IMG/VR virus record: IMGVR_UViG_3300028888_000122
Span: 7,976-71,975 of that record
Reading direction: 5' to 3' (one strand)
DNA: 64,000 nt
Source: a virus
Taxonomy: Duplodnaviria > Caudoviricetes
Both the position numbers and the translations under genes were made by a program. Below are positions 33,408 to 62,524 of the stretch, piece after piece. The stretch's first letter is position 1; each line of letters begins with the position of its first letter. The notes under the pieces are model-generated. The model ran no database searches. It saw only the letters and a list, made by a program, of their open reading frames with translations, and was not told the origin of the DNA.

Positions 33408-34028
33408 TTATTCCAGAACAAGCCCCGCCAAAACTTTCCAGATTCCGCGAATTGAAGAAAGCGGCACTTCGAACGGCACATACTTCTTGTTGTCGTTCAA
33501 AGAGTGGCACGTCACCTTTTCGGGCGAAGAGCCTGGTCTCAGTTCCTTGACAATAGCGCCGTTCACCGTGTCGATGACATAAACTTTGCCCCATTCGATG
33601 AAATCCGGGTCGTCAACGCGCCGGCAGAACAGCCTTGAGCCGCTCGGGTATTTCGGAGCCATGCTGTCCCCGCTCACCTCGATGGCCATTTCAGCGCCTT
33701 TCACGGGCGCGTGAACGCGTTCAAGTGACTTGACCGATGCGGAGTCCAACTGCTCGCTCAAAGCGCCTCCTAACGCGAACATATTGACGATAGGCACATT
33801 ATTATCAAAAGCCGTGTCGTTTTTGAACGGTTCCCCTTTCCCTGTCACAAGCCAGTCTATGTTCAGGTCGGGATACACAGAGGCGACGCCTTTGATTGCC
33901 TCAGACGAAAGATTCTTCACGCTATTGAAGTAAGCGTTACCTTTTCCGATTTTCTTTTCAAGACCGCTGATCGTGTCGCCTTTCATCCGCACGAACTCTT
34001 TAAGTCTTGCTTTTGTCTCGATTCCCAT
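33408..34028 (-). CDS. CI-like repressor with S24 autopeptidase domain
   Basis: N-terminal HTH (ISGLEKKIGKGNAYF; LNIDWLVTGKG); VSGDSMAP catalytic Ser; IVKEL Lys. Confidence 0.9.
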   Translation of the reverse strand: MGIETKARLKEFVRMKGDTISGLEKKIGKGNAYFNSVKNLSSEAIKGVASVYPDLNIDWLVTGKGEPFKNDTAFDNNVPIVNMFALGGALSEQLDSASVKSLERVHAPVKGAEMAIEVSGDSMAPKYPSGSRLFCRRVDDPDFIEWGKVYVIDTVNGAIVKELRPGSSPEKVTCHSLNDNKKYVPFEVPLSSIRGIWKVLAGLVLE

Positions 34029-34296: not shown

Positions 34297-34515
34297 ATGT
34301 TGAAATTAGCAAACATAGTGACAAAAAAATATGTGAGTATCAGGGAAACCCTTCTCGCATTACCTCTCAACGATGAGCGATACATCGCCGAGGATGTCAT
34401 TGCGTCAATGGATATCCGCAAGACCGCGAGCAAGCTCAAGAAGCAAGGTCTGGGCGAGTGGAAAGTCCGCAAGCAGCGCGGTGTCAATGTCACGAGCATA
34501 ACGAGGTTGGCATGA
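34297..34515 (+). CDS. Cro-position small DNA-binding protein
   Basis: First gene after the rightward promoter; start reassigned to ATG 34297. Confidence 0.55.
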   Translation: MLKLANIVTKKYVSIRETLLALPLNDERYIAEDVIASMDIRKTASKLKKQGLGEWKVRKQRGVNVTSITRLA

Positions 34516-34769
34516 AAGACGGCGGCAGGTACATAGTTCTCACTCCCGAAGAACTCGACGCATTGCTCGAGAAGGCAGTTGTCAAAGGGATCATGGCCGC
34601 GCGTTCATCACTAATGAGCCGCAGGCAGGCCGAGAAGGAGTATGGCAGAGCCACTATCAACCACCTCATCGAACGAGGCCTTATCGAAGGCCACAGGCAG
34701 GGCGCTGCCTCTAACTCCAAAGTCCTTTTCGGGAGAGAGGAGATAGAACGCGCCATTCTCAAGGGCTGA
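34512..34769 (+). CDS. Excisionase-like winged-helix protein
   Basis: MSRRQAEKEYGRATINHLIERGLI...VLFGREEIE; ATGA overlap. Confidence 0.55.
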   Translation: MKDGGRYIVLTPEELDALLEKAVVKGIMAARSSLMSRRQAEKEYGRATINHLIERGLIEGHRQGAASNSKVLFGREEIERAILKG

Positions 34770-34984
34770 CGGTCAGCCAACGTGACAGACGTGCGGGGTC
34801 ACGATAATAAACCCGCTAATCCAGTAACGCCCGCGAGAGGCGACTGGCGCAGGCCTCAAATAGAGGCTGAGCGAAGATAAAGCACCCGACATAAGCAGAT
34901 GCCAGCGGTGATCATCCCGAAAGAAGTAGGGGTGTAGCGGTTGAGAGCGGAAGGGCATAAGTAAGGACTTATTATGCTATTACA

Positions 34985-35019
34985 CGCACATGGGGGTTCG
35001 ACTCCCGCATGTGCGGCAA
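34985..35019 (+). ncRNA. tRNA minihelix mimic
   Basis: 12-position stem CGCACATGGGGG/CCCGCATGTGCG (one G-G mismatch) with T-loop TTCGACT, then GCAA. Confidence 0.5.
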
Positions 35020-35029
35020 ACAAAGGAGA

Positions 35030-35175
35030 TTTTTTAATTTCGTTTCATTTTGAAATTCATGGTAGTAATCTTAAAATTAGGTTTTGCCGCCTTGTCGTGA
35101 GACACAGCGGCTGATTGTAGGACAACATCCATAATTCAATGATTGCAATAGTCTTGTCGTGAGACACGGCTATTA
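35030..35175 (+). ncRNA. Two tandem modules: antisense-start-codon tract plus GTGA-loop hairpin
   Basis: Exact repeat CTTGTCGTGAGACAC at 35091-35105 and 35153-35167, each closed by a stem and preceded by a CAT-containing AT-rich tract. Confidence 0.5.
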
Positions 35176-35213
35176 TTTATGAAAACATTTTATTAACAAC
35201 AATATATTATTAT

Positions 35214-35789
35214 ATGGCAGAAACAAAGACAAAGACCGCCTCGTTGCTGCAGAAGCTCATGTTTATCCAACAGGAACTTGTTGCGACGAAAGGCAGAGAA
35301 AACAAGTTCGGCGGATTCATGTTCCGTAGCGTTGAGGACATTCTCGCTGCCGTGAAACCGCTATTGAAAGAGCGTGGCCTCGTTCTTCTTCTCAACGACA
35401 AAGTTGAGATGGTAGGCGAACGCTTTTACATGCACTCGATTGCCACGGTTACAGACGGAAGCGAGTCAATCACGGCAGACGGCTGGGCCAGAGAGCCCGA
35501 GCACAAGACCAAGAGCGACGACGCACAGGTGACCGGCATGTCGAGTTCCTATGCCCGCAAGTATGCCCTGTGTGGCTTGTTTATTATCGACAACACCGAC
35601 AACAAGGACTACGACATGCTCGACAACAGCAAGGAAGGTGTAGAAGACCCGCTCGCGGCGCAGATCAAGAGTGCCAAGAGTGTTGACGAACTCGCCACCA
35701 TCTGGAAGGCCAACCCCTCCATCACAGGTGACCAGACTTACAAGGAAATGTTCTCACAACGCAAACACGAACTGCAAGATGGACATTAA
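35214..35789 (+). CDS. erf: ERF-family single-strand annealing protein
   Basis: AQVTGMSSSYARKYALCGLF signature. Confidence 0.88.
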   Translation: MAETKTKTASLLQKLMFIQQELVATKGRENKFGGFMFRSVEDILAAVKPLLKERGLVLLLNDKVEMVGERFYMHSIATVTDGSESITADGWAREPEHKTKSDDAQVTGMSSSYARKYALCGLFIIDNTDNKDYDMLDNSKEGVEDPLAAQIKSAKSVDELATIWKANPSITGDQTYKEMFSQRKHELQDGH

Positions 35790-36702
35790 GTTGAACCCGA
35801 GCGGTGTCGTGTTCGACGAGCACAGGCACCTGTATTCCCTTAACGGGAAACCATTGAAGGGCATCACCGGCATGATTGGCCGCCAGTTGTTCCCTGACAA
35901 GTATGCTGACATTCCGCAGCACATCCTTGACAAAGCCGCAGAGTACGGTTCATCGGTGCACAGCACGATAGAGTTGTGCGACTCCCTTGGAGACCACGAC
36001 AATGCCGACCCGATTTACCAGGCATACCGCTCACTACTCTTTAGCGAAGGCCTCACGGTTATCGCCAACGAGTACATCGTCACCGACTATGAGCACTTCG
36101 CCTCTCCTATTGATGTCGTTGCGCATGACAAGGACGGCAACATCGCCATCATCGACATCAAGACCACGAGCAAGCATGACGGGGAATACGTGTCATGGCA
36201 GGGCAGTGTGTTGAAGAAACTGTTCTGCATCACCAACCCGCACCTCGCCGACAAGGTCAAGAGCGTCTATACTGTATGGCTCCCGAAGGTCATGTACGGC
36301 AAGCCCAGCATCTTCAAGGAGTGGCTGCGTGACGAGAGCGATGTCGATGAGCTCCTCAAGGCCGAGATTGAGCACCGCAAAGTATCCCTCGTGCCCAAAG
36401 AGAGCAACAACGCGTTGTCTCTTACCGATGACGCCATTGCCGAGTTCGCCAACATCGAGAGGCAGCTTGCCGAGGCCAAAGAGCGCAGTAAAGAGATGCG
36501 TGACGGCCTGTTGCTGGCGATGAAGGAGAACGGAGTAAAGTCGTTCAAGTGCGACCGTTTCATGCTGACCCGCGTCATACCGAGCGGAGAACCCGCCTAC
36601 ACGCTCGACACCGAGCGCTTAAAGGACGAGCATCCCGAAATTTGGGAAGAGTACAAGAAAGAGAAGAAACAAAGCGAATCATTACGTATTAAACTTTATT
36701 GA
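35779..36702 (+). CDS. PD-(D/E)xK exonuclease-like protein
   Basis: ASPIDVV...IIDIKTT motif; start reassigned to ATG 35779. Confidence 0.75.
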   Translation: MDIKLNPSGVVFDEHRHLYSLNGKPLKGITGMIGRQLFPDKYADIPQHILDKAAEYGSSVHSTIELCDSLGDHDNADPIYQAYRSLLFSEGLTVIANEYIVTDYEHFASPIDVVAHDKDGNIAIIDIKTTSKHDGEYVSWQGSVLKKLFCITNPHLADKVKSVYTVWLPKVMYGKPSIFKEWLRDESDVDELLKAEIEHRKVSLVPKESNNALSLTDDAIAEFANIERQLAEAKERSKEMRDGLLLAMKENGVKSFKCDRFMLTRVIPSGEPAYTLDTERLKDEHPEIWEEYKKEKKQSESLRIKLY

Positions 36703-42474: not shown

Positions 42475-42835
42475 CTACCACTATCCTCCAGGTGCGGACA
42501 CTCCAGATGCACCGTGGAACCAGATTGACCCAGAGCCAGTCACAAGAGAGTGTGAGGTGACCGTGGTGATGTCCAAGAAGATGGACATAGACACCATAGA
42601 CTATTACATCGACGATGAGGACGGCTATCCACGTATTGAACCTATGCACAACTGGACTGAGGATTACCGCAACCAATACAACGGCATACAAGGGTTACTC
42701 GGTAAACTTATCGAGTATATTGACAAAGACCTACAAAGGGACAACCTTGCCAGTGACCAAAGACAGGAGTTAAAGTTTCTGCGTGACGAAGCGGCAGGTT
42801 GGGATATTGATGACTTGGACATCAACGAATCATAA
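42464..42835 (+). CDS. Hypothetical protein (YPPGADTPDAPWN motif)
   Basis: Start reassigned to ATG 42464. Confidence 0.6.
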   Translation: MYDNYHYPPGADTPDAPWNQIDPEPVTRECEVTVVMSKKMDIDTIDYYIDDEDGYPRIEPMHNWTEDYRNQYNGIQGLLGKLIEYIDKDLQRDNLASDQRQELKFLRDEAAGWDIDDLDINES

Positions 42836-42849
42836 ACAGCACTAAATCA

Positions 42850-42980
42850 AGTTTATAGTTTTGGAATGATTGGTTATTAATTAAATTGTTAATCAGCCCG
42901 TGAGGGTATGTATTGGAGTAATTGTTTTTTCATAGGTTTAAGAATTAATTATCCCTGCTCATGCAGTGATGCACGGCAGG
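42850..42980 (+). ncRNA. Two AT-rich tract plus GTGA-loop hairpin modules
   Basis: CCC-GTGA-GGG near 42898 and CCTGC..TGCA-GTGA-TGCA..GCAGG at about 42954-42980. Confidence 0.45.
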
Positions 42981-42985
42981 TTTAT

Positions 42986-43078
42986 CAGAGGCAAGACCTG
43001 CACGATGGGCAAGGCAGGAAGGGTTTGAAGAGTTTTCCCTCATATGAGCAGCGGGTTCGATTCCCGCGCCTCTGGCCA
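42986..43078 (+). ncRNA. tRNA-like RNA without a canonical anticodon arm, ending in CCA
   Basis: Acceptor CAGAGGC/GCCTCTG, T-arm GCGGG-TTCGATT-CCCGC, G-CCA. Confidence 0.65.
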
Positions 43079-43228
43079 AGAAGATAAGCTGTGTATCAGC
43101 GACGGTTGATTCGCTTGGGAGTTTTTGGCAGAGAGCCACGGAAGACCCCGCCAGTCGTGACTGGCTTGTAAAAAGGCGCGTTTTCGCTGCCTTATCGTTA
43201 ATTCAATCGGGTGGGCAACCACCCAACA

Positions 43229-43363
43229 CGGGAGCCGCTGGTGCGGCAGGGAAGAATATATAGTTGTTAAGTTAGTAATAGTAATAAATAGAGTTGGTTT
43301 TTTTGGTGAAATGTTTCATAATCCTTCTTCCCTGTGACGGTTCGATTCCGCTGCTCCCGACAA
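43229..43363 (+). ncRNA. tRNA-like scaffold with a 68-nt AT-rich loop in place of the anticodon
   Basis: Acceptor CGGGAGC/GCTCCCG, D-like CGC-TGGT-GCG, 10-bp CAGGGAAGAA/TTCTTCCCTG, T-loop TTCGATT, A-CAA. Confidence 0.65.
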
Positions 43364-43395
43364 GTGCATTATTAATAATTTAAACTGCTAAGATT

Positions 43396-43551
43396 ATGAA
43401 TGAATTTGATTACAAAGACCACCACTATAAGGTGGTGAATGTGGAGAACTCCACCGACTGCATTATCATCAAGGATGGTAGGCAGACCCGCAGAGTAAGT
43501 AAGGCCATTGCAGACCATGCGATGGAGAACGTTTACAAGCTATTCAAGTGA
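43396..43551 (+). CDS. 51-aa hypothetical protein (absent from the ORF track)
   Basis: MNEFDYKDHHYKVVNV...; A-rich leader. Confidence 0.5.
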   Translation: MNEFDYKDHHYKVVNVENSTDCIIIKDGRQTRRVSKAIADHAMENVYKLFK

Positions 43552-43553
43552 TT

Positions 43554-43700
43554 ATGGTTACGAGAATCAGCATCACCGTCAAGGACGGGAAAGTTACATG
43601 GCTTCACCAGGATGGCGACGAACTGCCCAACTGGGATGACGTTGCAGTGAGCATTTGCAACGCAATTGAGAACAACAAACATTATCACAAACAAGACTAA
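43554..43700 (+). CDS. 48-aa hypothetical protein (absent from the ORF track)
   Basis: MVTRISITVKDGKV...; coupled spacing. Confidence 0.5.
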   Translation: MVTRISITVKDGKVTWLHQDGDELPNWDDVAVSICNAIENNKHYHKQD

Positions 43701-47033: not shown

Positions 47034-47349
47034 GGAAGGGCTCAAGCCTGGAGACGTGTTGTATTCCTACGGGTTGGGATTCATTAGCAAAGCCGTTTTC
47101 ATCAAGGTTGTCAACGGCAAGAAGTACTGCGATGACGGGAAAGTCCTCATCCAAGAGTATGTCGAGTTGCAGTTCGTCAACGAGGACAAGCCGTTCCGCA
47201 CGACATTGCATGACTGCAGTTGGGATATTACAGAGGAGAAAGCGATAGTCAGCGCGTTCAACGAGCATACGAGAATTGTTCGTGATTCGAATATTGAACT
47301 TAGCAGACTTAGCAAGATGATCAAGCGAAAGCAAATACTTATTCAATGA
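46984..47349 (+). CDS. Hypothetical protein
   Basis: Coupled ORF. Confidence 0.5.
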   Translation: MFYKRDYHSPTIKQLIKEGLKPGDVLYSYGLGFISKAVFIKVVNGKKYCDDGKVLIQEYVELQFVNEDKPFRTTLHDCSWDITEEKAIVSAFNEHTRIVRDSNIELSRLSKMIKRKQILIQ

Positions 47350-47816
47350 TGGAGAAGATTAGAGCGATAGAGATATTGAAAGACTTCAACGATTACAGGC
47401 GCAACGAAGGTGTCTATGACGTTGATGAGCCGTGCGAACCGAAGTTCACGGCGACGGAGATTGGCGAAGCGATAGACGAAGCCATTCGCACCATGTGCGA
47501 CAGCGAAGGCAAGTGCGGTATTATAGAAACCGTTATTAAAGAGACGGGCGTCAGCCTTGACGGTATCCGTTCGCAGAGCCGAGAGCGCGAGTTTGTCGTT
47601 GCAAGAGAGATTGCCGCGCACCTATTGCGCAGATACGGATACACATTCAAAGAGATAGGCGAAGTGATTAACCGCAGTCACTCAAACGTGTGTCACCTGT
47701 GTGACGAGGCAGAATACTGGGCCAGCGATCCAGAGAACCACCAAAGAGAGTTAAAGATATTGAAGCGAGTAGAACAACGAGTGGGAGAATCAAGCCAAGC
47801 CTCCCAAACGAAATAA
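47346..47816 (+). CDS. DnaA domain IV-like HTH protein
   Basis: IRSQSREREFVVAREIAAHLL...TFKEIGEVINRSHSNV. Confidence 0.7.
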   Translation: MMEKIRAIEILKDFNDYRRNEGVYDVDEPCEPKFTATEIGEAIDEAIRTMCDSEGKCGIIETVIKETGVSLDGIRSQSREREFVVAREIAAHLLRRYGYTFKEIGEVINRSHSNVCHLCDEAEYWASDPENHQRELKILKRVEQRVGESSQASQTK

Positions 47817-48638: not shown

Positions 48639-49583
48639 TCATTTAAAGAACTGCAGTGTCGTCTCGTCGATTTCCTTGTCGGCGCAGATGTAGTTGCGCC
48701 ACGTGATCTGCGGGTCGGAGTGTCCCATGAGCCGTGCGATGGTCGTCACCGCAGAGCCATGCAGAAACAGGAGCGTGGCGAAAGTGCGCCGTCCCGTGTG
48801 AGACGACACGAACTGCCACTTCGGCCCTTGTTCCTCCGCTCCCCGCCTCGTCAGCGTCACAGGTTCGTTGATATGCGCCCTGCAACAGAGAGAGCGCAAC
48901 GTGTCGTTAAACGTAGCCATGCGTGTCACAGGTTCTTCGCTGTCATCCTTTGCGAGATACTGTCCAAGCCACCTGTGCAACGGCACAGTCACCTGGTTTC
49001 CCGTCTTGACAGCCCGGTAGGTCAACGACTTCTTGCGCGTGTTGGCATGCTTGGACGATATTCGCTCAGCGTCGATATGTCTGGCTCCAGTGAGCGCTTC
49101 AATCATGAACACACGTTTGACATAACGTTCCGTTGCGTTTATCGTGCGCACATCGTTAAGCCGCTCCAACTCATCCTGTGTAAGATACACCGCTTCTGAC
49201 GGGTTGCGCTTCATCTTCAAAGACCTGTTGATGTCGCACACCTCCAGCGGGTCTTTCCCCTTGTGTACATCATAGTTATTGGCGTTGAGCACCGCCTTGA
49301 CCTGTGAGCACAGAGTCTTTACCGAAGAAGGGCACCGTCCGTTACTCAGCGCTTCACGCAAGTCACGCAGGTTGCTGTCGGTGATGTCGTCCCACGTGGG
49401 CGCGTGACCGAGAACTGCCGAGAACACATCGAGCGTCTTGCCAGCGTTAGGCCACTTGGTGAGGAAGCGACCGATGAACGACTTTCGCCATTCACCGATG
49501 TCGTCCCCCTCGTTGTAGTAGCCTTTCTTTGTCGCCTTCTTGACCGCAAGCAACACCTCGAACGGATAATAGTTGTCGCTCAT
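48639..49583 (-). CDS. Second tyrosine recombinase, lacking an arm-binding domain
   Basis: TGARHID, SSHTGRRTFAT, LMGH, RNY: catalytic set intact. Confidence 0.85.
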   Translation of the reverse strand: MSDNYYPFEVLLAVKKATKKGYYNEGDDIGEWRKSFIGRFLTKWPNAGKTLDVFSAVLGHAPTWDDITDSNLRDLREALSNGRCPSSVKTLCSQVKAVLNANNYDVHKGKDPLEVCDINRSLKMKRNPSEAVYLTQDELERLNDVRTINATERYVKRVFMIEALTGARHIDAERISSKHANTRKKSLTYRAVKTGNQVTVPLHRWLGQYLAKDDSEEPVTRMATFNDTLRSLCCRAHINEPVTLTRRGAEEQGPKWQFVSSHTGRRTFATLLFLHGSAVTTIARLMGHSDPQITWRNYICADKEIDETTLQFFK

Positions 49584-49811: not shown

Positions 49812-50117
49812 TCAGCAAAAAAGATTTTTATTTTCAAGAAAATATGGTCTCCATCCGCATGTTTGCGTGATGTCACACCACACATCCTTGATGTTCTCCT
49901 CCCAGCCGTTGTCGATGTCCTCCTGGATGATGCCGATGTCCAACGTATTGGGCAGCGTGTAGAGGATGATGCGGCACTGGAACCAGTCATCGCGGAATGC
50001 GATGGTGTGGCGGTATCCTTCATCGTCCTCGCAGTCCAACACGAAATGTCGAGCTGCCCCTTCGCGTTCCCTGAGCACGAACTCCTCGAACTCCTCGAAA
50101 GTGAGATAATGTTTCAT
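49812..50117 (-). CDS. Hypothetical protein ending ENKNLFC
   Basis: Downstream of hammerhead 1. Confidence 0.65.
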   Translation of the reverse strand: MKHYLTFEEFEEFVLREREGAARHFVLDCEDDEGYRHTIAFRDDWFQCRIILYTLPNTLDIGIIQEDIDNGWEENIKDVWCDITQTCGWRPYFLENKNLFC

Positions 50118-52628: not shown

Positions 52629-52687
52629 GTTCTGGACACCGCCAACGCGTAGCGGTGTTTCGCCCATTGAGGGCTCGTCAGCAGAAC
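52629..52687 (-). ncRNA. Type I hammerhead ribozyme 3 (GUC site)
   Basis: GTTCTG-CTGACGA-GCCC/GGGC-GAAA-CACCGC/GCGGTG-TC-CAGAAC. Confidence 0.92.
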
Positions 52688-54101: not shown

Positions 54102-54136
54102 AATTGATTTGATTTAAAAAGTTGATAAAGTTAGTA

Positions 54137-54240
54137 TTCGCAACCGCCGCCCGCCATTACAGGAAGGCGACACGCTCGTGGCTTGATGCGCTTGTACGTT
54201 CCGCCACGACGGAGTAGGCTATTTCGCACGGAAACGGCCC
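54137..54240 (-). ncRNA. Unassigned structured RNA in a ribozyme slot
   Basis: Stems TCGTGGC/GCCACGA and GTCGCC/GGCGGG; ACGAGCGT shared with 56664-56717. Confidence 0.4.
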
Positions 54241-54306
54241 TCTACGGCATTTTCTCGCCGCAGACGTAGAGTTAATCGTTTGAAGGGAATTTTGCGCTTA
54301 GAATTT

Positions 54307-54343
54307 AAAAAGACAGTCCCGCGCTTCCCAACGCAGGACTGCC
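54307..54343 (-). terminator. Intrinsic terminator
   Basis: GGCAGTCCTGCG/CGCGGGACTGTC stem plus T5. Confidence 0.7.
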
Positions 54344-54397
54344 ATCAACTATCTAATTTTATACATTATGTACAAATGTCTCAATCAAGAGACGGCG

Positions 54398-54429
54398 CAA
54401 AATTAGTGCTTAGTTTTGGATTGCGCAAA
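54398..54429 (-). promoter_or_regulatory. Sigma-A promoter
   Basis: TTTG-20nt-TAATTTTG. Confidence 0.65.
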
Positions 54430-54433
54430 TTTT

Positions 54434-54613
54434 TTACTCTACTTGTTCAATGTCTCTGTAGCCCGTACGGGCGTAGAGAATGTCGTTCATTGTCTCCTCG
54501 CTGTAGCCGTTGATGTCGGCAACGAGGCTGATTTCGGCTTCGGTAGCGATGCCGTTGTCGATGAGAAAATTCTTAACTCTTTCGCAATCTGTGTCGTGAT
54601 AGATGTAACTCAT
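54434..54613 (-). CDS. 59-aa hypothetical protein (absent from the ORF track)
   Basis: ...FLIDNGIATEAEISLVADINGYSEETMNDILYARTGYRDIEQ. Confidence 0.65.
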   Translation of the reverse strand: MSYIYHDTDCERVKNFLIDNGIATEAEISLVADINGYSEETMNDILYARTGYRDIEQVE

Positions 54614-54649
54614 AGTTCGATTGATTTGTCAGTTAGTAAATGCGGATAG

Positions 54650-54707
54650 TTGCCCGTCGAATGTCCGGCATTCGCTCGGCTCTGTTTTCAAGCCGATAAA
54701 CGGGCAA
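54650..54707 (-). ncRNA. Unassigned three-way-junction RNA, motif A copy 1
   Basis: P1 TTGCCCGT/ACGGGCAA; P2 TCGGCT-TGAAAACAG-AGCCGA; P3 CGAATG/CATTCG. Confidence 0.65.
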
Positions 54708-54716
54708 GACCGAACT

Positions 54717-55013
54717 TTAATCAGTGGTGCGGTAGTAATACTCGGCATCACTACCACTCAGGTTGTCGCAGCACCAATCGTGACACTCGTTCCACAGGTC
54801 GTTATAGACGCGTGCAACGTTCTCGTTCTTCTCGTACCACTGCCAAATCTTCCAATTCAGCACGAGCGAGAGTTCGGTGATGTACACGATGTTGCCCCTC
54901 CACTCGGTGAACGCGCGGTGGTAGGTGTCAACGATAGCGTCGGTGCCGAAGACCTCGGCAATCGAGAAGTCCTGCCAAAAGGTGGTCTTCGTTTCGTATC
55001 CATTCACATTCAT
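54717..55013 (-). CDS. Hypothetical protein
   Basis: TTFWQDFSIAE...ELSLVLNWKIWQWY...YYRTTD motif. Confidence 0.7.
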   Translation of the reverse strand: MNVNGYETKTTFWQDFSIAEVFGTDAIVDTYHRAFTEWRGNIVYITELSLVLNWKIWQWYEKNENVARVYNDLWNECHDWCCDNLSGSDAEYYYRTTD

Positions 55014-55024
55014 AGCAATAGGTA

Positions 55025-55372
55025 TTAATGGTTAAACAAATTCTTGTCTTGGTTTAACAATTCAGGTTTAATCTCGCCATACAGGTAGTCGTCGGTGCAC
55101 ATGAAGCAGAAATAGTCCGCCATAGGCTTGCCTTTCCAATACGGAACTGTTACGTATCCGTTTTGTTTCCACTCGTTCTCATAGCGCCCATCATCAATCT
55201 CTGTGTGATTGAACACGTTGCAGTTAATGGCGCGAACTGCATATTCTTCGTAATCATAGAATAATCCTACGCCTGACATGCAGAGTGCAGCAATCGCATT
55301 CTCTGCGAGTTCCAACAATGCCTTTTGCTCAGGAGTGAGTTGGATGAGTTTTTTGATGATTTCTTCATTCAT
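55025..55372 (-). CDS. Hypothetical protein ending DKNLFNH
   Basis: Start reassigned to MNEE. Confidence 0.65.
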   Translation of the reverse strand: MNEEIIKKLIQLTPEQKALLELAENAIAALCMSGVGLFYDYEEYAVRAINCNVFNHTEIDDGRYENEWKQNGYVTVPYWKGKPMADYFCFMCTDDYLYGEIKPELLNQDKNLFNH

Positions 55373-55404
55373 AGTCGTAAAGTTTAAGTTAATAATGTTC
55401 ATTG

Positions 55405-55462
55405 CCGCCCGCAGAATATCCGATATTCACGCGCGTCTGTTTTCAACGCGCTATGCGGGCGA
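55405..55462 (-). ncRNA. Unassigned three-way-junction RNA, motif A copy 2
   Basis: P1 TCGCCCGCA/TGCGGGCGG; P2 GCGCGT-TGAAAACAG-ACGCGC; P3 GAATAT/ATATTC. Confidence 0.65.
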
Positions 55463-55466
55463 GTCC

Positions 55467-55760
55467 TTAAAAGAGGTTCTTGTCTTGCTTTTGGAAGTTT
55501 CCTTCCAGCCAACGGATGGAATAGTTACATACCGCTTCAACGTACTCATGGTACAGGTAGCATAAAATGCGGGTCTTCGGACTGTCATAGTTGCCCCACA
55601 TATCAACGATACACAACTCGTCGCCTTGTAATTTCAGTCCGAGCAGGTCTGGCTCGCCAGATTTGTCATCGTACGGAAGAGTGAGATGCAGCGGTTTGGG
55701 AAACATTATCGTTCCTCCGTTTTTCTTGCAGTAATCAATAAGGGTTTCAATCTTGTCCAT
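55467..55760 (-). CDS. Hypothetical protein ending DKNLF
   Basis: Start reassigned to MDKIET. Confidence 0.65.
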   Translation of the reverse strand: MDKIETLIDYCKKNGGTIMFPKPLHLTLPYDDKSGEPDLLGLKLQGDELCIVDMWGNYDSPKTRILCYLYHEYVEAVCNYSIRWLEGNFQKQDKNLF

Positions 55761-55786
55761 ATCAAAGTTGATTTTAATAGTTAGTA

Positions 55787-55842
55787 CATTGCTGTGCGTG
55801 TGCTCTCGCTGCACAATGCGCGGTCGTACCGCTCACGCACAA
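55787..55842 (-). ncRNA. Unassigned three-way-junction RNA, motif B copy 1
   Basis: TTGTGCGT-GA-GCGG-TACGA-CCGC-GCATT-GTGC-AGCGAGA-GCAC-ACGCACAG-CAATG. Confidence 0.65.
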
Positions 55843-55847
55843 TCCGA

Positions 55848-56096
55848 TTAGAACAGGTTTCTGTCGATGAACACCTCACCCGACAGTTTCTCGAGTATCT
55901 CTTTCTTGGTCTCGCAGGGCAGCCCCGAGAAGCAGAACAAAAGACCTGGTGTGCTTACGTACACGTACCCATTGAAAAGTGTGAAATGCTCTATGCGATG
56001 TTTAGACGCCAACGTCTCAATATACAGCACTGCTTTCGGCTTGTAACTTCCGCCAGCGTTAAACAGGAATTTTTTCAGTCTTTCTTCCATGATCAA
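55848..56096 (-). CDS. Hypothetical protein ending DRNLF
   Basis: Clean coupled ORF. Confidence 0.6.
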   Translation of the reverse strand: MIMEERLKKFLFNAGGSYKPKAVLYIETLASKHRIEHFTLFNGYVYVSTPGLLFCFSGLPCETKKEILEKLSGEVFIDRNLF

Positions 56097-56356
56097 AACA
56101 GGTTCTTGTCACGCTTTGGCGCTTTGATGGCGTTATACACGTCGGTGATATATTCGTCTTGGCAATTGTCGAGTTCGAACTCGCCTTCCTCGCCTCCTGG
56201 AAACGTTGAGTATGTGATATACACTTTGCCAGCGCAAATACTCAAACCGAGGATGTTGACAAGTTCACCGTCGTACATGTCGATGTACTCATAGGTGCCG
56301 GCATCCCCGCTCTCGATGAGAGCGCGGATTTCGCTAATCATTTGCTTGGTATCCAT
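56093..56356 (-). CDS. Hypothetical protein ending DKNLF
   Basis: Clean ORF. Confidence 0.65.
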   Translation of the reverse strand: MDTKQMISEIRALIESGDAGTYEYIDMYDGELVNILGLSICAGKVYITYSTFPGGEEGEFELDNCQDEYITDVYNAIKAPKRDKNLF

Positions 56357-56360
56357 AATA

Positions 56361-56639
56361 CTAAAACATGTTTTTGTCGATTTTGATGTTCTCTCGAATT
56401 TTCGCGATTAGCGATTGGAGATAGTCGATGTCGTGATCACGCAAGTAGTCGTTGCGATAGTTAAATTGTCCAAGCCTCACGCTGTACTGGTCGAAAAAGA
56501 CATCGTTGTCTTCAACGTGGATGTTCTGAGCCCGTAGGATGTTGGTCATTGAGCCATACTGCACATCGAAATGCAGGCCATTGAGCAGGCCTTTCTCACA
56601 ATACGTTTTGATTTCACTGATGATTTCTTTTGTATTCAT
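56361..56639 (-). CDS. Hypothetical protein ending DKNMF
   Basis: Clean ORF. Confidence 0.65.
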   Translation of the reverse strand: MNTKEIISEIKTYCEKGLLNGLHFDVQYGSMTNILRAQNIHVEDNDVFFDQYSVRLGQFNYRNDYLRDHDIDYLQSLIAKIRENIKIDKNMF

Positions 56640-56663
56640 ATCGTCAAAGTTTAAAAGTTAGTA

Positions 56664-56717
56664 CATTGTCAGGGCGGGGAGTTGCGGACTCCCTACAACG
56701 CTCGTACTTCGCCCCGA
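56664..56717 (-). ncRNA. Unassigned structured RNA in a ribozyme slot
   Basis: TCGGGGCG/CGCCCTGA enclosing AAGTACGAGCGTTGTA and GGGAGT/ACTCCC; ends CAATG like motif B. Confidence 0.5.
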
Positions 56718-56721
56718 TTGA

Positions 56722-57012
56722 TTAGAAGAGATTTTTGTCACGAGGATTTAATAAATCCTTGACCTGGTCGTAGATGTAGGCTGCGTTGCGCACTCCCTTG
56801 CTGTCGTAGTCGTACAGATGATACCCTTCCGGTGCGTTACACGCAGGCGTGCTGTACATTATCACTTGCGAGTCGGTTGGATATGCCCATATCTCGACAA
56901 CTTCATACTCGTTCCACGAGTCATCTAAACACAGCCGAACGTTAGGCGTTTTCAACGGCCCGTTCTCTCGGAGCAGGCTCCATAATTCTTTGAATTTTTC
57001 TGAGTGTGTCAT
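56722..57012 (-). CDS. Hypothetical protein ending DKNLF
   Basis: Clean ORF. Confidence 0.65.
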   Translation of the reverse strand: MTHSEKFKELWSLLRENGPLKTPNVRLCLDDSWNEYEVVEIWAYPTDSQVIMYSTPACNAPEGYHLYDYDSKGVRNAAYIYDQVKDLLNPRDKNLF

Positions 57013-57041
57013 AACTGATTGAATTTAAAGTTAGTAATTAG

Positions 57042-57093
57042 CATTGGTGGGCGGTCTCGCTCCGCCATGCCAGGTCGTTCCTGTCACACCAAT
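57042..57093 (-). ncRNA. Unassigned three-way-junction RNA, motif B copy 2
   Basis: ATTGGTG-TGA-CAGG-AACGA-CCTG-GCAT-GGCGG-AGCGAGA-CCGCC-CACCAAT-G. Confidence 0.65.
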
Positions 57094-57101
57094 CCATTGT
57101 G

Positions 57102-58166
57102 TCATTTCACCTCGGCGACCTCCTCCGCATCGCAGTAGTAACACTCGAGATGCTGGAGTGCGTCCTCAAAATCGTAGTAGTTGAGGTCGGGAAATTCAGC
57201 CTTCCACGAATCGTAGAAACCGACAACGTCGAAACCGTCGGGATCGTTGTACCAATCCAGGTACATCATCTCAACGAGTTCATCGAATTGCCTGGCAATC
57301 TCTCCATCTTCTGCATCACCGCTCATAGAGCGCGACGAAGGCCACGAATCGTAGATGTCTCCGTATCCGTACCAATCATCATCGTTCCAGCCCCTGTGGA
57401 AGCCACCGTAGACGGAATAACTGCGTTGCGCCTTGTGCGGACACACATCGGTCACTGTGTCGATGATGTGGAACACCAGGTCACGGCAGTTGCACAACTC
57501 TGAGAAAATCGTCGTTTCCTCGCTTGTGTGCGGATTGTAGTAACCGCACGACAGGTTACACGCAGCGACAGAGAGCCCGCGCGACTTGAGTTCCATGACA
57601 TCGGTCATCATCCCCGTGGCTTTCTTGTAGCCGAAACGCGCCATGTCAATCTTTGACATAAAACCATCGTCGCACAGTTCCCATCCGCTGGCGTTGCTGA
57701 TGAAGTCAGACGAGCCACGGCGGTCGCATTGGACAACAAAACGGCAGTCGCTGAAAAACGACATATCGGCCTGGCTGCTGCCCACGCATCCGATTTCCTC
57801 GCCCACGAACAGGGCGACTTTCACAGCGTCATACCTGAGCAAGCACTGCATGGCTACCCAGATGCCGTTCTTGTCGTCGGCACCGATGCCATACTGCGAC
57901 TTGCTGTCAAGGTCGAAACCGAAGATATAGTCGTCGGCTCTCGCCACGCGGAATTGGTTGTTTCGTTCGCGGTGCACCTCGTCGATGTGAGCGACAACGC
58001 AGGGAAAACTCTCTGCTATGCCCTTTGTGACGTATATGCCGCTCTGGTCGCTAACGACCTTTGCCGACGGCACATTCTCCTTGAGCCAGCCCTTGAGATA
58101 CTTGCGCATCTTTTTCTCCTGACCACTGTGACTTGACACGTAATAAAGTTTGATTAAATCTTTCAT
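57102..58166 (-). CDS. M20/M28-family zinc peptidase-like protein
   Basis: VAHIDEVH, GADDKNG, GEEIGC, YYNPHT metal-ligand motifs. Confidence 0.8.
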   Translation of the reverse strand: MKDLIKLYYVSSHSGQEKKMRKYLKGWLKENVPSAKVVSDQSGIYVTKGIAESFPCVVAHIDEVHRERNNQFRVARADDYIFGFDLDSKSQYGIGADDKNGIWVAMQCLLRYDAVKVALFVGEEIGCVGSSQADMSFFSDCRFVVQCDRRGSSDFISNASGWELCDDGFMSKIDMARFGYKKATGMMTDVMELKSRGLSVAACNLSCGYYNPHTSEETTIFSELCNCRDLVFHIIDTVTDVCPHKAQRSYSVYGGFHRGWNDDDWYGYGDIYDSWPSSRSMSGDAEDGEIARQFDELVEMMYLDWYNDPDGFDVVGFYDSWKAEFPDLNYYDFEDALQHLECYYCDAEEVAEVK

Positions 58167-58200
58167 AATAGTACACTGATTAAAGTTAGTAAAAGTTAGT

Positions 58201-58245
58201 TTGTTCCCGGGCGGGGAATCGAACCCCGCCGAAAACCATTCGGGA
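58201..58245 (-). ncRNA. Minimal tRNA mimic (5-bp acceptor + 7-bp T-stem)
   Basis: TCCCG-AATGGTTTTC-GGCGGGG-TTCGATT-CCCCGCC-CGGGA-ACAA. Confidence 0.65.
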
Positions 58246-58247
58246 GA

Positions 58248-59858
58248 TTAGGCAACGTCAGCCAGGTAGTACGTGCCGCAGATTTCAACGCAGTCGTCGG
58301 ACAGCGCATCGACGAACTTGCCGAAACGCCTGTCAAACGCGCGCACGCAGTCGTCCTTGTGGAAGAAATGTCCATCGATCTTGACTGCGTCTTCGAGGAG
58401 AATGGTCTCGCAGTTGTTGGTCTCGACGGTCTCGCTCTCGAGCGCATAAGCCCACGAGCCATAGATGTCATAGTCGAGTTCCTTGCACTCGTCGCTGGGA
58501 GCGTACTCGCCCTCGTGCTCACCGTGAGAGAGTTCGTAGCAATCGTCTCGCAACACATTACGGTCATCGTAATCCGTGACGAGATCATCGTCATCATAGT
58601 AGGCGTATTGTCCCTCGTGCTCGCCAGCTTCGATGATACGCGCGTCGTCGAAGTGACAATAGGTGTTGTCGTAGAGGCAATAGGTATCATCGCACAGGTA
58701 GTACGAATCAGTGTGCTCGCAATAGTACGCATCGTCTTCGTGGCACCACATGTCACGATATTCGAGATACACGCAGTCGTCGTCGTCGTACCACTCATCG
58801 TCACGCTCTACGTAGCGCTCTCCGTCACGGAGTTCTCCGTCACGTCCTCGCTGGCCAGGAACGATACGTCCCGTGATAGCGAGGTCGATGTCGCCGTCGC
58901 AGGTTTCCCAATTGACGGCACGCTCATCGTCGCATTGGAGCCAGCGGAAACCGTCCTGGAACGAGAGCGTGTCGCCCGGCTGTGCCGTGCAGCGCACCCA
59001 CAGTCGGCTGTTGTTGAGTTTCGTTCCGTCCAACAGGACGTACGAGCGGTTATCCCAACAAGAGCACTCGAACTGCTTGTGTCCGTCAATCTTGTTCTGC
59101 TCGGCGAGCAAATAGATCAACTGTCGGCGCGCCTCGGAGTTCTCTCCGTACTGACGCTCAGCCAGCCTGTACGTCTTCTCGCTGTGATCCTCGTCGTGAA
59201 CAGCCGTCCACACGATACAACGAGCGATGAGTTTATCTCCGTCCCACAGCCCTGCTGCAAGCGCGTCAGGCATAGAGTCGCGGTAGAATTTCCACTGACC
59301 CTTGTCGTTCATGCACGAGCCGAAATTGCTGTGTCCGCTGTAGATTTTCTCGAAATCCCTGTCGAGCGTCAGACGGTAGCGCCCGTCGCCCGCGTGACCG
59401 GCACGATAGATGGCGCTGAGTTGCTCAGCGAAATACACGCGCACGGGTTCGGGATATTCGGGATGCGTCTCGTCGATGATACGGCGGAAAAACTTCCCGC
59501 ATTTCATCTTGAAGACACGGTTCACGTCACACTTGACGTAACGGATGCTCAGCGGGTCTCCGTCAGCGCACACACCGTTGCGGTCGTCCGTCTTGTACAC
59601 TTCGCTGTGAGCGTAGATGTACTTGTCGGTCAGTTCCTCGGGTTTCCCCTGGATGTGGATGCTGATGTTAGGCTCGCTTACGGCATCGTCGCGGAAACGC
59701 TTGCCGACGTAGTTTACCACGCCCTGCAGATCGTCCACGGCGACAGCCTCGTCGTCGTTGTTCTCAAAACCCCACGCCCAGAGGGCTGTGATGATGTTTG
59801 AGTACGTACGGTTACCTTTTCTCTCCTCGATTCTCTTGATTAATTCTTCTTGTTCCAT
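58248..59858 (-). CDS. Large protein with a PcfJ-like region and an acidic Cys/His/Tyr repeat C-terminus
   Basis: SCMNDKG...IARCIVW...LAERQY; repeated DDCV/CxxT units; start reassigned to MEQEE. Confidence 0.65.
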   Translation of the reverse strand: MEQEELIKRIEERKGNRTYSNIITALWAWGFENNDDEAVAVDDLQGVVNYVGKRFRDDAVSEPNISIHIQGKPEELTDKYIYAHSEVYKTDDRNGVCADGDPLSIRYVKCDVNRVFKMKCGKFFRRIIDETHPEYPEPVRVYFAEQLSAIYRAGHAGDGRYRLTLDRDFEKIYSGHSNFGSCMNDKGQWKFYRDSMPDALAAGLWDGDKLIARCIVWTAVHDEDHSEKTYRLAERQYGENSEARRQLIYLLAEQNKIDGHKQFECSCWDNRSYVLLDGTKLNNSRLWVRCTAQPGDTLSFQDGFRWLQCDDERAVNWETCDGDIDLAITGRIVPGQRGRDGELRDGERYVERDDEWYDDDDCVYLEYRDMWCHEDDAYYCEHTDSYYLCDDTYCLYDNTYCHFDDARIIEAGEHEGQYAYYDDDDLVTDYDDRNVLRDDCYELSHGEHEGEYAPSDECKELDYDIYGSWAYALESETVETNNCETILLEDAVKIDGHFFHKDDCVRAFDRRFGKFVDALSDDCVEICGTYYLADVA

Positions 59859-59891
59859 AACGAAAAAACTGATTAGTTGATAAAAGTTAGC

Positions 59892-59938
59892 TGTGTTCCC
59901 TGTGGAAGAGTCGGACTGCCACAAAGCACCATGCAGGG
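59892..59938 (-). ncRNA. Minimal tRNA mimic (5-bp acceptor + 7-bp T-stem)
   Basis: TCCCT-GCATGGTGCTTT-GTGGCAG-TCCGACT-CTTCCAC-AGGGA-ACAC. Confidence 0.55.
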
Positions 59939-59942
59939 AAAA

Positions 59943-60320
59943 TTAGGCGACAAACAGGTTTTTGTCGCGCTTTCTGTCTGAGCGGGTAGTGGGGCGCTCG
60001 TAGTCGCGCAGAATGCTCTGGAGCGGGGCGTCGGTAAATTGCATACCCGTATCCCAATACCACACTCCACGACATTGGTAGATGCTCCTGTTGAAGCGTT
60101 CGAGCAGAGCGTTCAACCTGGATTTGGTTGTTCGTGTGCGCCAACCAGCTGACGAGAGGTAAAGAACTGACGCGTGTAGATGAACAAGCGCAATCAAATT
60201 CTCGTGCAGATACACAGCAGCGAGCGTTCCGTTCGCAACTATCTCGACGCGCGTGTTAGAGCGACGCCAATTACGCCGAAGGCTTATAGCCTCCAGCATT
60301 TCTTGTTCGATAATTTTCAT
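59943..60320 (-). CDS. Hypothetical protein ending DKNLFVA
   Basis: LHENLIA...SSAGWRTRTTKSRLNALL motif. Confidence 0.7.
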   Translation of the reverse strand: MKIIEQEMLEAISLRRNWRRSNTRVEIVANGTLAAVYLHENLIALVHLHASVLYLSSAGWRTRTTKSRLNALLERFNRSIYQCRGVWYWDTGMQFTDAPLQSILRDYERPTTRSDRKRDKNLFVA

Positions 60321-60348
60321 GATTTTCTATGATTTAGTAGTTAGTATT

Positions 60349-60412
60349 GTTCTGGACGGCTGCGACGCGCACAGCCGTTTCGTCGCAATTTCCAGCGACT
60401 CGTCAGCAGAAC
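60349..60412 (-). ncRNA. Type I hammerhead ribozyme 5 (GUC site)
   Basis: GTTCTG-CTGACGA-GTCGC/GCGAC-GAAA-CGGCTG/CAGCCG-TC-CAGAAC. Confidence 0.92.
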
Positions 60413-60877
60413 TTAGGACATTGGCTTGCCAACGATGTACTCTAATTGTTCAGCAAGCAATTTGTCGGTGTCGCCATAATTAAGAAGGAGGGATTTTAGT
60501 GGGCCGATTTCAATCAAATGAGCGCGGTGTTCTTTCTCGTTATAGTAATACACGAGCTCTTCGTCTCCTTTGCTCGCGCATTCTTTTTGCACCCACTCCT
60601 CGTGCTCGGCTGTAAACCTACTGTCGTCACACAGGAGAAAATACTCGGCGTCTGAGAAATCGCGATACGGTTGAAACGCTAACGCTTTCAACACGTTGCG
60701 CACGCACCCAACGAAATTGCTCGAATAAACCTCTGGCGCGTTGGCGATGACTAACTTGTTGCCGTCAACAGCGTCTATACCGCAGATAAACTCGGGATAT
60801 CTCCCACCTTTGCGCATAACACGCAGCGCCATCAAATCAGTGACGGGCGCTTGGATTTTAAGATTGAAAATTTGCAT
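60413..60877 (-). CDS. Hypothetical protein
   Basis: Start reassigned to MQIFNL. Confidence 0.65.
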   Translation of the reverse strand: MQIFNLKIQAPVTDLMALRVMRKGGRYPEFICGIDAVDGNKLVIANAPEVYSSNFVGCVRNVLKALAFQPYRDFSDAEYFLLCDDSRFTAEHEEWVQKECASKGDEELVYYYNEKEHRAHLIEIGPLKSLLLNYGDTDKLLAEQLEYIVGKPMS

Positions 60878-60908
60878 AATTCTTCTCTGATTAAAGTTAG
60901 TATTGTTT

Positions 60909-60972
60909 GTTCCAGACGCTGTCAACGCGTGACAGCGTTTCGTCGCAATTTTCAGCGACTCATCAGTGGAAC
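60909..60972 (-). ncRNA. Type I hammerhead ribozyme 6 (GUC site; predicted cut between 60915 and 60914)
   Basis: GTTCCA-CTGATGA-GTCGC/GCGAC-GAAA-CGCTGTCA/TGACAGCG-TC-TGGAAC. Confidence 0.93.
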
Positions 60973-61350
60973 TTAGATGACCAAAATGTTGTCGCTAACT
61001 CCGAGCAAACGCAACAGGTGTTGCAATTCGTGGACGTAGTGAAACACGATGGCGTTTGTGCAAAACTCATTCATCTCGAGCGTGGTCACGATGTCGATGC
61101 GACCTCTAAACCATACGTAGTTTTCGCCGATGTCGTTCGCTATCTCCTTTCGCCAGCCACTTCTCTCCAAAATATCCGCAGTCAGCGGAAGCGGAGAAAT
61201 CTCGTCTTCGTGGAATTTGTCAGCATAAATGCTTCCCCAGGTTTTGCGGAAATCGTGCAGCGACAATTCGTGCAGCCAAATCATGTCAACTCGTTTAGGC
61301 ACACCGTCGTGCAGTACGAGGTCGTTTAGCATTAAATCTTTTGCTTTCAT
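60973..61350 (-). CDS. YopX-like protein, paralog of 44426-44824
   Basis: DLMLNDLV...SPLPLTADIL...YVHELQHLLRLLG. Confidence 0.6.
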   Translation of the reverse strand: MKAKDLMLNDLVLHDGVPKRVDMIWLHELSLHDFRKTWGSIYADKFHEDEISPLPLTADILERSGWRKEIANDIGENYVWFRGRIDIVTTLEMNEFCTNAIVFHYVHELQHLLRLLGVSDNILVI

Positions 61351-61371
61351 AATCGTTCGGTTTTAACTGGT

Positions 61372-61854
61372 TTAGCAACCGCGCAGGTCGTAGAGTTTCT
61401 GCCTGAGGTCGTGCCACAATACGTCACACTCGCACTCGAGCGATTGTGTACGCTTGCGCAGTTGTTCATACAATGGATTGAGCAGATTGTGGGCGTACAG
61501 CATCCTGGCTCGCTGCAGGGCGAACTGCAAATCCTGCACACACCGCATCAGCGGCTCGATGTCGTTCTCCTGGAGTTGGTCGAACTCGATTTCACGCTCG
61601 CTCTTGCGGTGCGCGGTAAAATACAGCACACGACCGCTCGGGCATTTCACGTAGAACTCGTCAAGCGGAGCCCTGCGAGATGAAAGCCTGTAGCCGTTGA
61701 ACTCCTGCACACGAAGTTCGTCGCTCCAACACTTTTCCCATGACTCGTAGATTTCCTGGCTCTCGTGCGTGTAGATGTAAATCCACAAACCGCCGTCAAT
61801 CTCTCCGCGCATTGCGCTCTCGTCAATCTGTTGTGATAATGTTTCGATTAGCAT
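61372..61854 (-). CDS. Hypothetical protein
   Basis: Downstream of the pistol ribozyme. Confidence 0.65.
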   Translation of the reverse strand: MLIETLSQQIDESAMRGEIDGGLWIYIYTHESQEIYESWEKCWSDELRVQEFNGYRLSSRRAPLDEFYVKCPSGRVLYFTAHRKSEREIEFDQLQENDIEPLMRCVQDLQFALQRARMLYAHNLLNPLYEQLRKRTQSLECECDVLWHDLRQKLYDLRGC

Positions 61855-61881
61855 AATTTCTCTATTTTAAAGTTAGTAAAT

Positions 61882-61943
61882 GTTCACCCACATTTTTGTG
61901 ACGCTCTGAGCCTAAGAACCTGTTTTGAGTCGCTCAGACGACT
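61882..61943 (-). ncRNA. Pistol ribozyme
   Basis: P1 AGTCG/CGACT with loop TCTGAG pairing to CTCAGA (pseudoknot), AAAA linker, P2 GTTC/GAAC, GCGT, P3 CAC/GTG, GGT cleavage junction. Confidence 0.82.
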
Positions 61944-62062
61944 TTTTCTATCATTCATCGTACTTGAAATCCACGTGAACGAAACAAATCGTACTCGAAA
62001 AATTTCCAAGCACAATTTCAGCGGGGAAAACGCGTTTTTTACACGCTCTCCCCGCCTATTGT

Positions 62063-62281: not shown

Positions 62282-62283
62282 GA

Positions 62284-62496: not shown

Positions 62497-62524
62497 AATT
62501 CTCTATTTTAAAAGTTAGTAGTGT

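Follow-up and report, generated by a model that had tools for sequence, protein, structure and literature searches.

An RNA folded like a tRNA, in which a long stem and a large loop take the place of the anticodon arm, raises the question of what such an element does inside a phage operon. The element is found at 43229-43363 (+) of the window, i.e., the whole stretch of DNA that was analyzed, which covers 64 kb of a phage genome of 71,975 bp on a single contig. The initial annotation of this locus had proposed a natural tRNA scaffold whose loop is antisense to a leader shared by the phage's own left-running genes.

Genomic setting of the element

Genes for a terminase, a major head protein and a tape-measure protein were read in the window, as was a gene for a tyrosine integrase (48639-49583, -). 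A CI/LexA-like S24 peptidase repressor (33408-34028, -) is divergent from a rightward operon, which starts with recombination genes (34297-36702, +) that include ERF (35214-35789) and a RecE-like exonuclease, and which ends with a gene encoding a DnaA_C-domain protein (47346-47816). Since the repressor is divergent from this ERF/RecE-like operon, the tRNA-shaped element is located inside a presumed lytic early operon, within an untranslated stretch of approximately 560 nt. The source of this DNA is probably a gut or rumen phage of Bacteroidales. Its capsid protein shows 53.6% identity to that of Dulem virus 40 and 26.7% identity to those of Bacteroides/Phocaeicola phages of the LoVEphage type, and its start sites are mostly without a Shine-Dalgarno sequence and favor AUUAUG. 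Taking into consideration these capsid relatives and start sites, a Bacteroidales host is likely. A blastn search of 42700-43600 against the GenBank phage collection returned no match, and neither did a tblastn search of the same collection with the 51-aa protein encoded downstream of the element; the sole return of pattern scans of viral contigs was one contig already known, and a scan of genome contigs gave one weak and unrelated match.

Architecture of the tRNA-shaped element

In both predicted folds of 43229-43363, MFE and centroid, the 5' strand of an acceptor-like stem (CGGGAGC, 43229-43235, +), which forms 7 bp with 43353-59, is followed by a D-like mini-hairpin, CGC-UGGU-GCG, with GG in its loop (43236-43245, +). 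The canonical 5-bp anticodon stem with a 7-nt loop is absent and is replaced by an 11-bp stem, formed by 43246-43256 (+) and 43325-43335 (+), that closes a 68-nt loop (43257-43324, +); the loop size given in the initial annotation therefore stands, while the stem is 11 bp long rather than 10. The unpaired probability of the 5' strand of this stem is 0.03. The loop is AU-rich and nearly C-free (U30 A22 G13 C3), and the + strand shows no C at all between 43247 and 43317. The next feature, at 43336-43352 (+), is a T arm, GACGG-UUCGAUU-CCGCU, with a canonical 7-nt T loop and with one mismatch and one G-U pair in its stem; the mismatch is also found in some relatives. The 3' strand of the acceptor, GCUCCCG, and an ACAA tail (43360-63) complete the element (43353-43363, +), the fold of which, taken as a whole, has a z-score of only -2.0.

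As in tRNAs, the 7-bp acceptor is placed on a 5-bp T stem with a 7-nt T loop of the UUCRANY type. Features of substrates of RNase P and of tRNA 3'-end enzymes are also present, namely a 12-bp coaxial stack of acceptor and T stem (7 + 5 positions), the T loop and a GG contact from the D loop, with the UGGU and UUCGAUU loops as the D/T contact elements. The 3' RCCA tail of such substrates is missing, and the tail reads A-CAA. In bacteria, CCA aids RNase P without being obligatory. The other tRNA mimics of this genome are followed by N-CAA, N-CCA or N-CAC tails.

Conservation and covariation among relatives

A conserved gene encoding a 51-aa protein (43396-43551, +) lies just downstream of the element. 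This gene has 47 homologues, approximately 25 loci of which were retrieved, and its 5' neighbor is always the element or the stem-loop module of the element. Ten near-identical relatives, which differ at few positions, keep the whole element, including the loop tract described below. RNAalifold found almost no covariation in the window-type set, because so few positions vary among its members. A second subtype (L001/L026, L005 and L006) has the same four-way shape with other sequences, and here RNAalifold analysis of L001, L026, L005 and L006 revealed compensatory changes in 8 of the 25 pairs. Across both subtypes, exchanges in the acceptor include C-G/U-A and A-U/U-A, and the third pair of the T stem is C-G, U-G, U-A or G-C among relatives. 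The long stem is wholly different in sequence in four lineages and retains its pairing, and an A-to-G change in its 3' strand in L024 retains a G-U pair. An equivalent of the mini-hairpin, CCG-loop-CGG, was found in L001, L005 and L006. As several of the pairs are G-U pairs, which are feasible on the + strand only, the structure is to be read from the + strand RNA. These compensatory changes confirm that the tRNA-like scaffold reported earlier is a real RNA structure.

The T loop of the L001/L005/L006 subtype reads AGCGAUR, and tRNA mimicry is therefore not family-wide, being strictest in the window lineage. Moreover, L004, L008, L016, L017 and L020 carry, at the same position, a GC-rich stem closing a 36-70-nt C-poor loop, without acceptor or T arm. 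Because the stem-loop is found without a tRNA frame in L004, L008, L016 and L017, frame and arm represent separable modules, and a comparison of these sequences indicates that the long-stem/large-loop arm is the conserved unit, with the tRNA frame as an optional housing. No curated Rfam family matched 43229-43363. The element is a new structured RNA family outside Rfam and, in kind, at most a variation on known ones.

Ribozymes and further tRNA mimics in intergenic slots

In the minus-strand array that makes up the left-running genes, a structured RNA immediately precedes each leader. Rfam matches include a pistol ribozyme (58 bits) and several candidates just below the respective cut-offs, i.e., a pistol-like RNA at 33.1 bits (cut-off 34.5 bits) and hammerheads at 33.5, 33.2 and 29.5 bits (cut-off 34), along with weaker ones. 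This second pistol-like RNA and the three hammerheads, which are of type I, occupy the slots 54139-54214, 60349-60412, 52629-52687 and 60909-60972 (-), each before a leader. The weaker hammerhead-like matches at 53275, 52084 and 50151 are also intergenic and also precede a leader. Overall, at least eight hammerhead or pistol ribozymes were counted in intergenic slots of the genome. Further tRNA-like T arms sit on the coding strand; T arms were found at 62536-52 and 58212-28 on the minus strand, to which a near-duplicate at the opposite genome end can be added, and at 34992, 43051 and 43336 on the plus strand. The junction that follows the structured RNAs is always of the ...AAC/ACAA(AC) type, and is succeeded by a G-poor leader and an ATG.

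The near-duplicate joins 62496-62600 (-) with genome positions 149-184, outside the window, where a near-identical tRNA mimic, leader and gene start (ATGACTATCGACAAATTCT) are found with few differences; this end-of-contig duplicate could be either a terminal repeat or a true duplication. Upstream of the element, a second tRNA-like element with a T arm and the end GCCUCUG-G-CCA (42985-43077, +) matched tRNA-Sec at 19.2 bits, which is below the cut-off. Between both tRNA mimics is a structured module at 43118-43195 (+) composed of GGGAG..., a hairpin, GGAAGACCCCGCC and another hairpin. This motif is also present in L004, L008, L016, L017 (twice) and L020, had no match in Rfam, and may be a new RNA family or a ribozyme candidate.

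Prophage ribozyme arrays have been known since 2011 (PMC3088659). In these arrays, multiple hammerheads flank prophage genes and are suggested to cleave polycistronic transcripts (Perreault et al. 2011, PMC3088659). The array described here resembles them in its nearby integrase, in the ribozymes between small genes and, in relative L004, in the presence of ArdA, but PMC3088659 describes neither tRNA mimics nor a shared leader nor a complementary tract on the other operon. In L004, a pistol ribozyme (3282-3354, +, 52.7 bits) and an ArdA anti-restriction gene (3674-4249) are co-directional and show similar G-poor leaders, which echoes the ardA-hammerhead association (Perreault et al. 2011, PMC3088659). 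Because ArdA is found in this equivalent array, a role of the left array in establishment is plausible by analogy.

Dulem virus 40 (L031), the nearest GenBank phage, showed no Rfam ribozyme matches; it was rejected as a test of covariation, being without the leader, the 51-aa gene and Rfam ribozymes. Its left array does contain structured intergenic RNAs, including CCCGG...CCGGGAAC elements followed by G-poor leaders at 8480-8960 (-), and several tiny annotated ORFs (30-35 aa) are found in the same array at 11958-12427.

A probable tRNA-like processing signal

The model that best accounts for these observations is a tRNA-like processing signal. It is probably among several such signals in the operons, which are punctuated by hammerhead and pistol ribozymes as well. 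Given the geometry suited to tRNA enzymes, the slot equivalent to those of ribozymes and the ACAA-type junction followed by a gene, its most likely function is to direct cleavage and protect the ends, so that the next mRNA would gain a defined 5' end and an RNA of 135 nt would be freed; the chance that all of this is the actual function can be put at about even. Mechanistically, the acceptor/T-arm stack and the GG-loop hairpin would serve as a signal to host tRNA-processing enzymes, with RNase P acting on the 5' side and a tRNA 3' nuclease acting at the ACAA tail. Other tRNA-like T arms and the ribozymes occupy equivalent intergenic slots. Cleavage at the element would set the 5' end of the mRNA for the 51-aa gene and free the 135-nt RNA. 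The arm that replaces the anticodon arm is an older module conserved in the family, a long stem with a 36-70-nt C-poor loop, which in the window lineage is housed in the tRNA frame. The structure, its conservation and covariation, its context and its complementarity are direct observations, from which we infer cleavage, release and stability of the RNA.

Several findings count against processing. ARAGORN with default settings and Rfam are both blind to the element, the T stem contains a mismatch, the tail is not CCA, and the T loop in L001/L005/L006 is AGCGAUR. A pure processing function also leaves unexplained the large conserved loop, as well as the top-ranking match of the element to the leaders and the tracts of L006, L020 and L004 described below. 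With regard to the loop, Rho loads on C-rich RNA, and the C-depleted unpaired parts of the 560-nt untranslated stretch would help it to escape Rho. This would provide a reason other than antisense pairing for why the composition of the loop mirrors that of the G-poor leaders.

RNase P has been shown to cut operon mRNAs and phage RNAs (PMC11143913). Precedents in which an intergenic tRNA fold marks where a transcript is cut, leaving a small tRNA-like by-product, include mitochondrial transcripts, operon mRNAs of E. coli (Li and Altman 2003) and mascRNA. Unlike in these systems, the phage mimics alternate with self-cleaving ribozymes, a 90-nt arm replaces the anticodon arm, and the tail is ACAA.

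Complementarity between the loop and the leaders

The loop contains a tract, AAGUUAGUA(AU) at 43269-43279 (+), in which AAGUUAGUA (43269-77) is the exact complement of the UACUAACUU leaders of the left array. On the + strand, where all of its copies in the window are found, this motif reads AAGTTAGTA, and there are 8 exact copies compared with 0.30 expected. One of these is the copy in the element loop at 43269-77. The other seven are minus-strand UACUAACUU leaders at 54128, 56655, 57028, 58183, 60894, 61870 and 62512 (span 54128-62520), each directly preceded by a ribozyme or tRNA mimic and each starting 24-35 nt upstream of an ATG; a ninth copy is located at genome position 149, outside the window. 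The earlier claim of an exact complement in at least seven left-running genes is thus borne out by seven located copies, and so is the reported match length of 9-11 nt, as three leaders are complementary over 10 nt and one over 11 nt.

The leaders are G-poor and approximately 24-35 nt long. The shared leader, UACUAACUUUAA, contains UAACUUUAA, which is almost the 'epsilon' translational enhancer of T7 gene 10 (UUAACUUUAA). By analogy, the leader may be an AU-rich translation enhancer. This likeness belongs to the leader and not to the element, and initiation signals in Bacteroidales differ from those of T7.

The match between loop and leaders is modestly above chance. The number of leaders with a 9-mer complementary to the loop was 9, compared with 2.3 for dinucleotide-shuffled loops (p=0.029), and the version of this test with 8-mers gave p=0.016. 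When 8-mers complementary to leaders were scored against block shuffles in 85 + strand tiles covering 1-47.8 kb, 1.2% of the tiles had p<=0.01, as expected, and the tile with the element had the highest anti-leader score (1/85) and was the only one at p<=0.01. By comparison, the hybridization energy of the whole loop to the leaders (RNAduplex) was not better than that of shuffled loops (p=0.09).

A second stretch of the loop, AAUGUUUCAUAAUC (43310-43323, +), is complementary to start regions of the AUUAUG type, with matches of 10, 10 and 9 nt that are at chance level. Specifically, AATGTTTCAT (43310-19) is the complement of ATGAAACATT at the start of gene 49812-50117, a match of equal quality (10 nt) exists to the start of gene 60973-61350, and TTCATAATC can pair with GATTATGAA at 43392-43400 (9 nt) at the start of the element's own downstream gene. 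Because most starts read like AUUAUGAAA, these matches are not special; the complementarity to the first codons of 49812-50117 that had been singled out earlier is real (10 nt) but carries no significance beyond chance. The word UUUUCAUA(A) recurs on the + strand at 42925-42935 and 43314-43321 and in the upstream regions of L001, L004, L005, L009, L017 and L020. It is found in C-poor untranslated stretches and represents the complement of the common start context AUUAUGAAA.

Possible antisense control of the left array

The complementarity suggests a possible antisense role, in which the excised 135-nt RNA would pair through AAGUUAGUA(AU) with the UACUAACUU leaders of the left array, at a site approximately 16-35 nt upstream of the start, and would lower translation or mRNA stability once the rightward operon is on. 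We consider this role possible, though on the unlikely side. It draws on an accessible seed against the translation-initiation region of 8 genes, with perfect complementarity over 9-11 nt and an unpaired probability of the tract of 0.66 in the predicted ensemble, on the shuffle tests (p=0.016-0.029) and on the first rank of the element tile among 85. On the other hand, the seed duplexes are weak, at only -7.9 kcal/mol for 9 bp to -9.9 kcal/mol for 11 bp, and the duplex energies do not stand out from those of shuffled loops (p=0.09).

Whether the loop follows the leader among relatives bears directly on this role. Retention of the tract in the ten near-identical relatives is uninformative, as their sequences differ at so few positions. 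The only relative obtained with both the loop and the left array was the L006/L015 phage, the left array of which shares its pistol, hammerhead and tRNA-like elements, as well as the TACTAACTT leader, with that of the window. Despite this leader, the homologous loop of L006, GUUAAAGUUUAACCAUCUGUUAGUUUCUAAGGUGACU, is without the 9-mer and shares only GUUAGU (6 nt) with the tract; it contains a different match of 8-10 nt, UAAAGUUUAA, to the AACUUUAA part of some leaders. Shuffle tests of the loops of L001, L016 and L017 showed no anti-leader enrichment. A loop that does not follow the leader in relatives, which the initial annotation had named as counting against its proposal, was thus seen in part: it applies to the loop of L006/L015, and anti-leader tracts are present elsewhere in the region in L006, L020 and L004. 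Judging from the relatives, display of the tract on the loop does not appear to be conserved.

The tracts outside the loop, however, count in favor of the antisense role. The untranslated region of L006 supplied the top 2 of 40 tiles and contains a 12-nt leader complement in a spacer at L006:201-212 (tract L006:188-212), and that of L020 supplied the top 2 of 17 tiles, with an identical AAGUUAGUAAA at L020:3003-3013, also in a spacer and not in the loop. In L004, complements of the leaders of its own array numbered 31 compared with 12 expected (p<0.002), and this array, which is punctuated by ribozymes, is on the same strand. The regions of L005 and L008 gave a weaker anti-leader signal, and the untranslated regions of L001, L016 and L017 gave no enrichment. 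Scaffold display on a tRNA frame is thus not a conserved property of these tracts, which in relatives sit in spacers. Moreover, leader words in the sense orientation were also enriched in several regions, and part of the signal is therefore shared AU-rich word usage. Taken together, anti-leader tracts appear to be a recurrent but position-free tendency, which leaves the antisense idea standing as a hypothesis. In L005, an anti-leader tract outside the loop, UAGUUAGAAGUUAGA (L005:9566-9580), is located before a tRNA mimic.

Precedents for such a role exist. In the C4 RNA of phages P1 and P7 and the CI RNA of phage P4, short antisense tracts exposed in loops base-pair with sites that recur upstream of phage genes, and CI is a second precedent, next to C4, of a phage antisense RNA matured by RNase P. 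For C4, that the precursor of this antisense RNA is a substrate of RNase P is stated in the part of PMC11143913 that refers to reference 222. Like the RNA predicted here, C4 and CI are phage small RNAs cut from an operon transcript by RNase P. They differ in that they are not cloverleaves with a canonical T arm and in that they act on their own downstream transcript, in immunity, and in enterobacteria, whereas the candidate targets of the phage element are on the opposite strand and its processing and pairing are predicted. A further parallel is provided by engineered tRNA scaffolds for RNA display, reportedly described by Ponchon and Dardel in 2007. In these scaffolds a foreign RNA replaces the anticodon stem-loop, and tRNA-processing enzymes trim and stabilize the product; they are man-made, and the phage element would be a candidate natural counterpart.

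A dedicated shut-off role of the AAGUUAGUA tract thus seems, on the sequences compared, somewhat improbable. That the element is a natural tRNA-scaffolded anti-leader RNA, freed from the lytic operon by host enzymes and switching the whole array off, is a tentative reading that we would not expect to hold; if it did, relatives would carry equivalent tracts elsewhere in a multi-module untranslated RNA, with one guide for many targets.

To the known ribozyme arrays, this phage adds tRNA mimics, a common leader on the processed mRNAs and, on the other operon, an exposed loop with the complement of this leader. A functional pairing would provide a regulatory rationale for punctuated arrays, since one small RNA could address every processed mRNA, and the element would be a counterpart of engineered tRNA scaffolds that occurs naturally in Bacteroidales. 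Regulation by small RNAs in this order is not well understood. Were the pairing without function, the element would still represent a new structured RNA family not in Rfam, and the phage would offer a clean set of substrates for mRNA punctuation of the RNase P type in gut phages.

Other explanations

A cis-acting 5' UTR element, in which the long stem and loop would control the 51-aa gene itself, is rather improbable. Possible routes would be pairing of UUCAUAAUC with the gene's own start, a short frame that opens in the loop and continues across the 3' strand of the stem, or a terminator-like stem with a U-rich tail. This explanation agrees with the position of the module, which is always directly 5' of the 51-aa gene, and with the 9-nt complementarity to the gene's own start at 43392-43400, but this complementarity is missing in L001, L005 and L017. 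UUCUUCUUUU-type tails follow the stand-alone versions of the stem-loop. The window, L008, L016, L004 and L020 have an AUG toward the 3' end of the loop. The short frames, which are missing in L001, L005 and L006, show no conservation at the peptide level. In addition, cleavage at the tRNA frame would sever the loop from the mRNA. A mini-gene on the minus strand and a short frame within the loop were both rejected, as neither is conserved.

It is very unlikely that the locus is a DNA-level or minus-strand feature, in which the AT-rich insert would be a copy of a leftward leader or promoter, or a relic of cassette recombination, with the complementarity of the + strand as a by-product. All nine motif copies do share the same DNA orientation, and the loop, read on the minus strand, lacks G, as the leaders do, and contains AUUAUG with a 15-codon frame that ends inside UACUAACUU. 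The order is reversed compared with real slots, however, as the start comes before the leader, and there is no gene within the usual spacing, other leaders starting 24-35 nt before the ATG. The motif is also without the final G of the Bacteroides -7 box, TAnnTTTG, and the G-U pairs of the stem work in + strand RNA only. A scan for sigma-70 promoters at the element was empty, and with the G of the -7 box missing as well, a promoter was rejected.

Least of all, with hardly any chance of being correct, could the element be a true tRNA-Met with an intron or a miniature tmRNA, which is effectively refuted by ARAGORN with default settings (0 tRNA or tmRNA genes) and by Rfam at E<=10 (no tRNA or tmRNA match on 43229-43363), both of which leave it unrecognized. 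A relaxed ARAGORN run (-ps90, introns allowed) did call a tRNA-Met(CAU) with a 62-nt intron at the coordinates of the element, but there is no anticodon stem around UUCAUAA, and the same run made 10 calls elsewhere in the genome that are absent from the default run. The element shares with the tRNA-like domain of tmRNA an acceptor stem, a T arm and a D-like loop, as well as the topology in which a long helix opening into a large loop replaces the anticodon arm; it differs from tmRNA in lacking G3:U70 (the third acceptor pair is G-C), CCA (the tail is ACAA), pseudoknots and a tag frame. The tRNA mimic in the upstream part of the untranslated region of L005 (module A, L005:9389-9493, +) matched the tmRNA model over its full length, at 24.5 bits, which is below the cut-off of 47, and reads as a tRNA-like domain without the body. 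At the equivalent place in L008, a true tRNA was found (60.7 bits).
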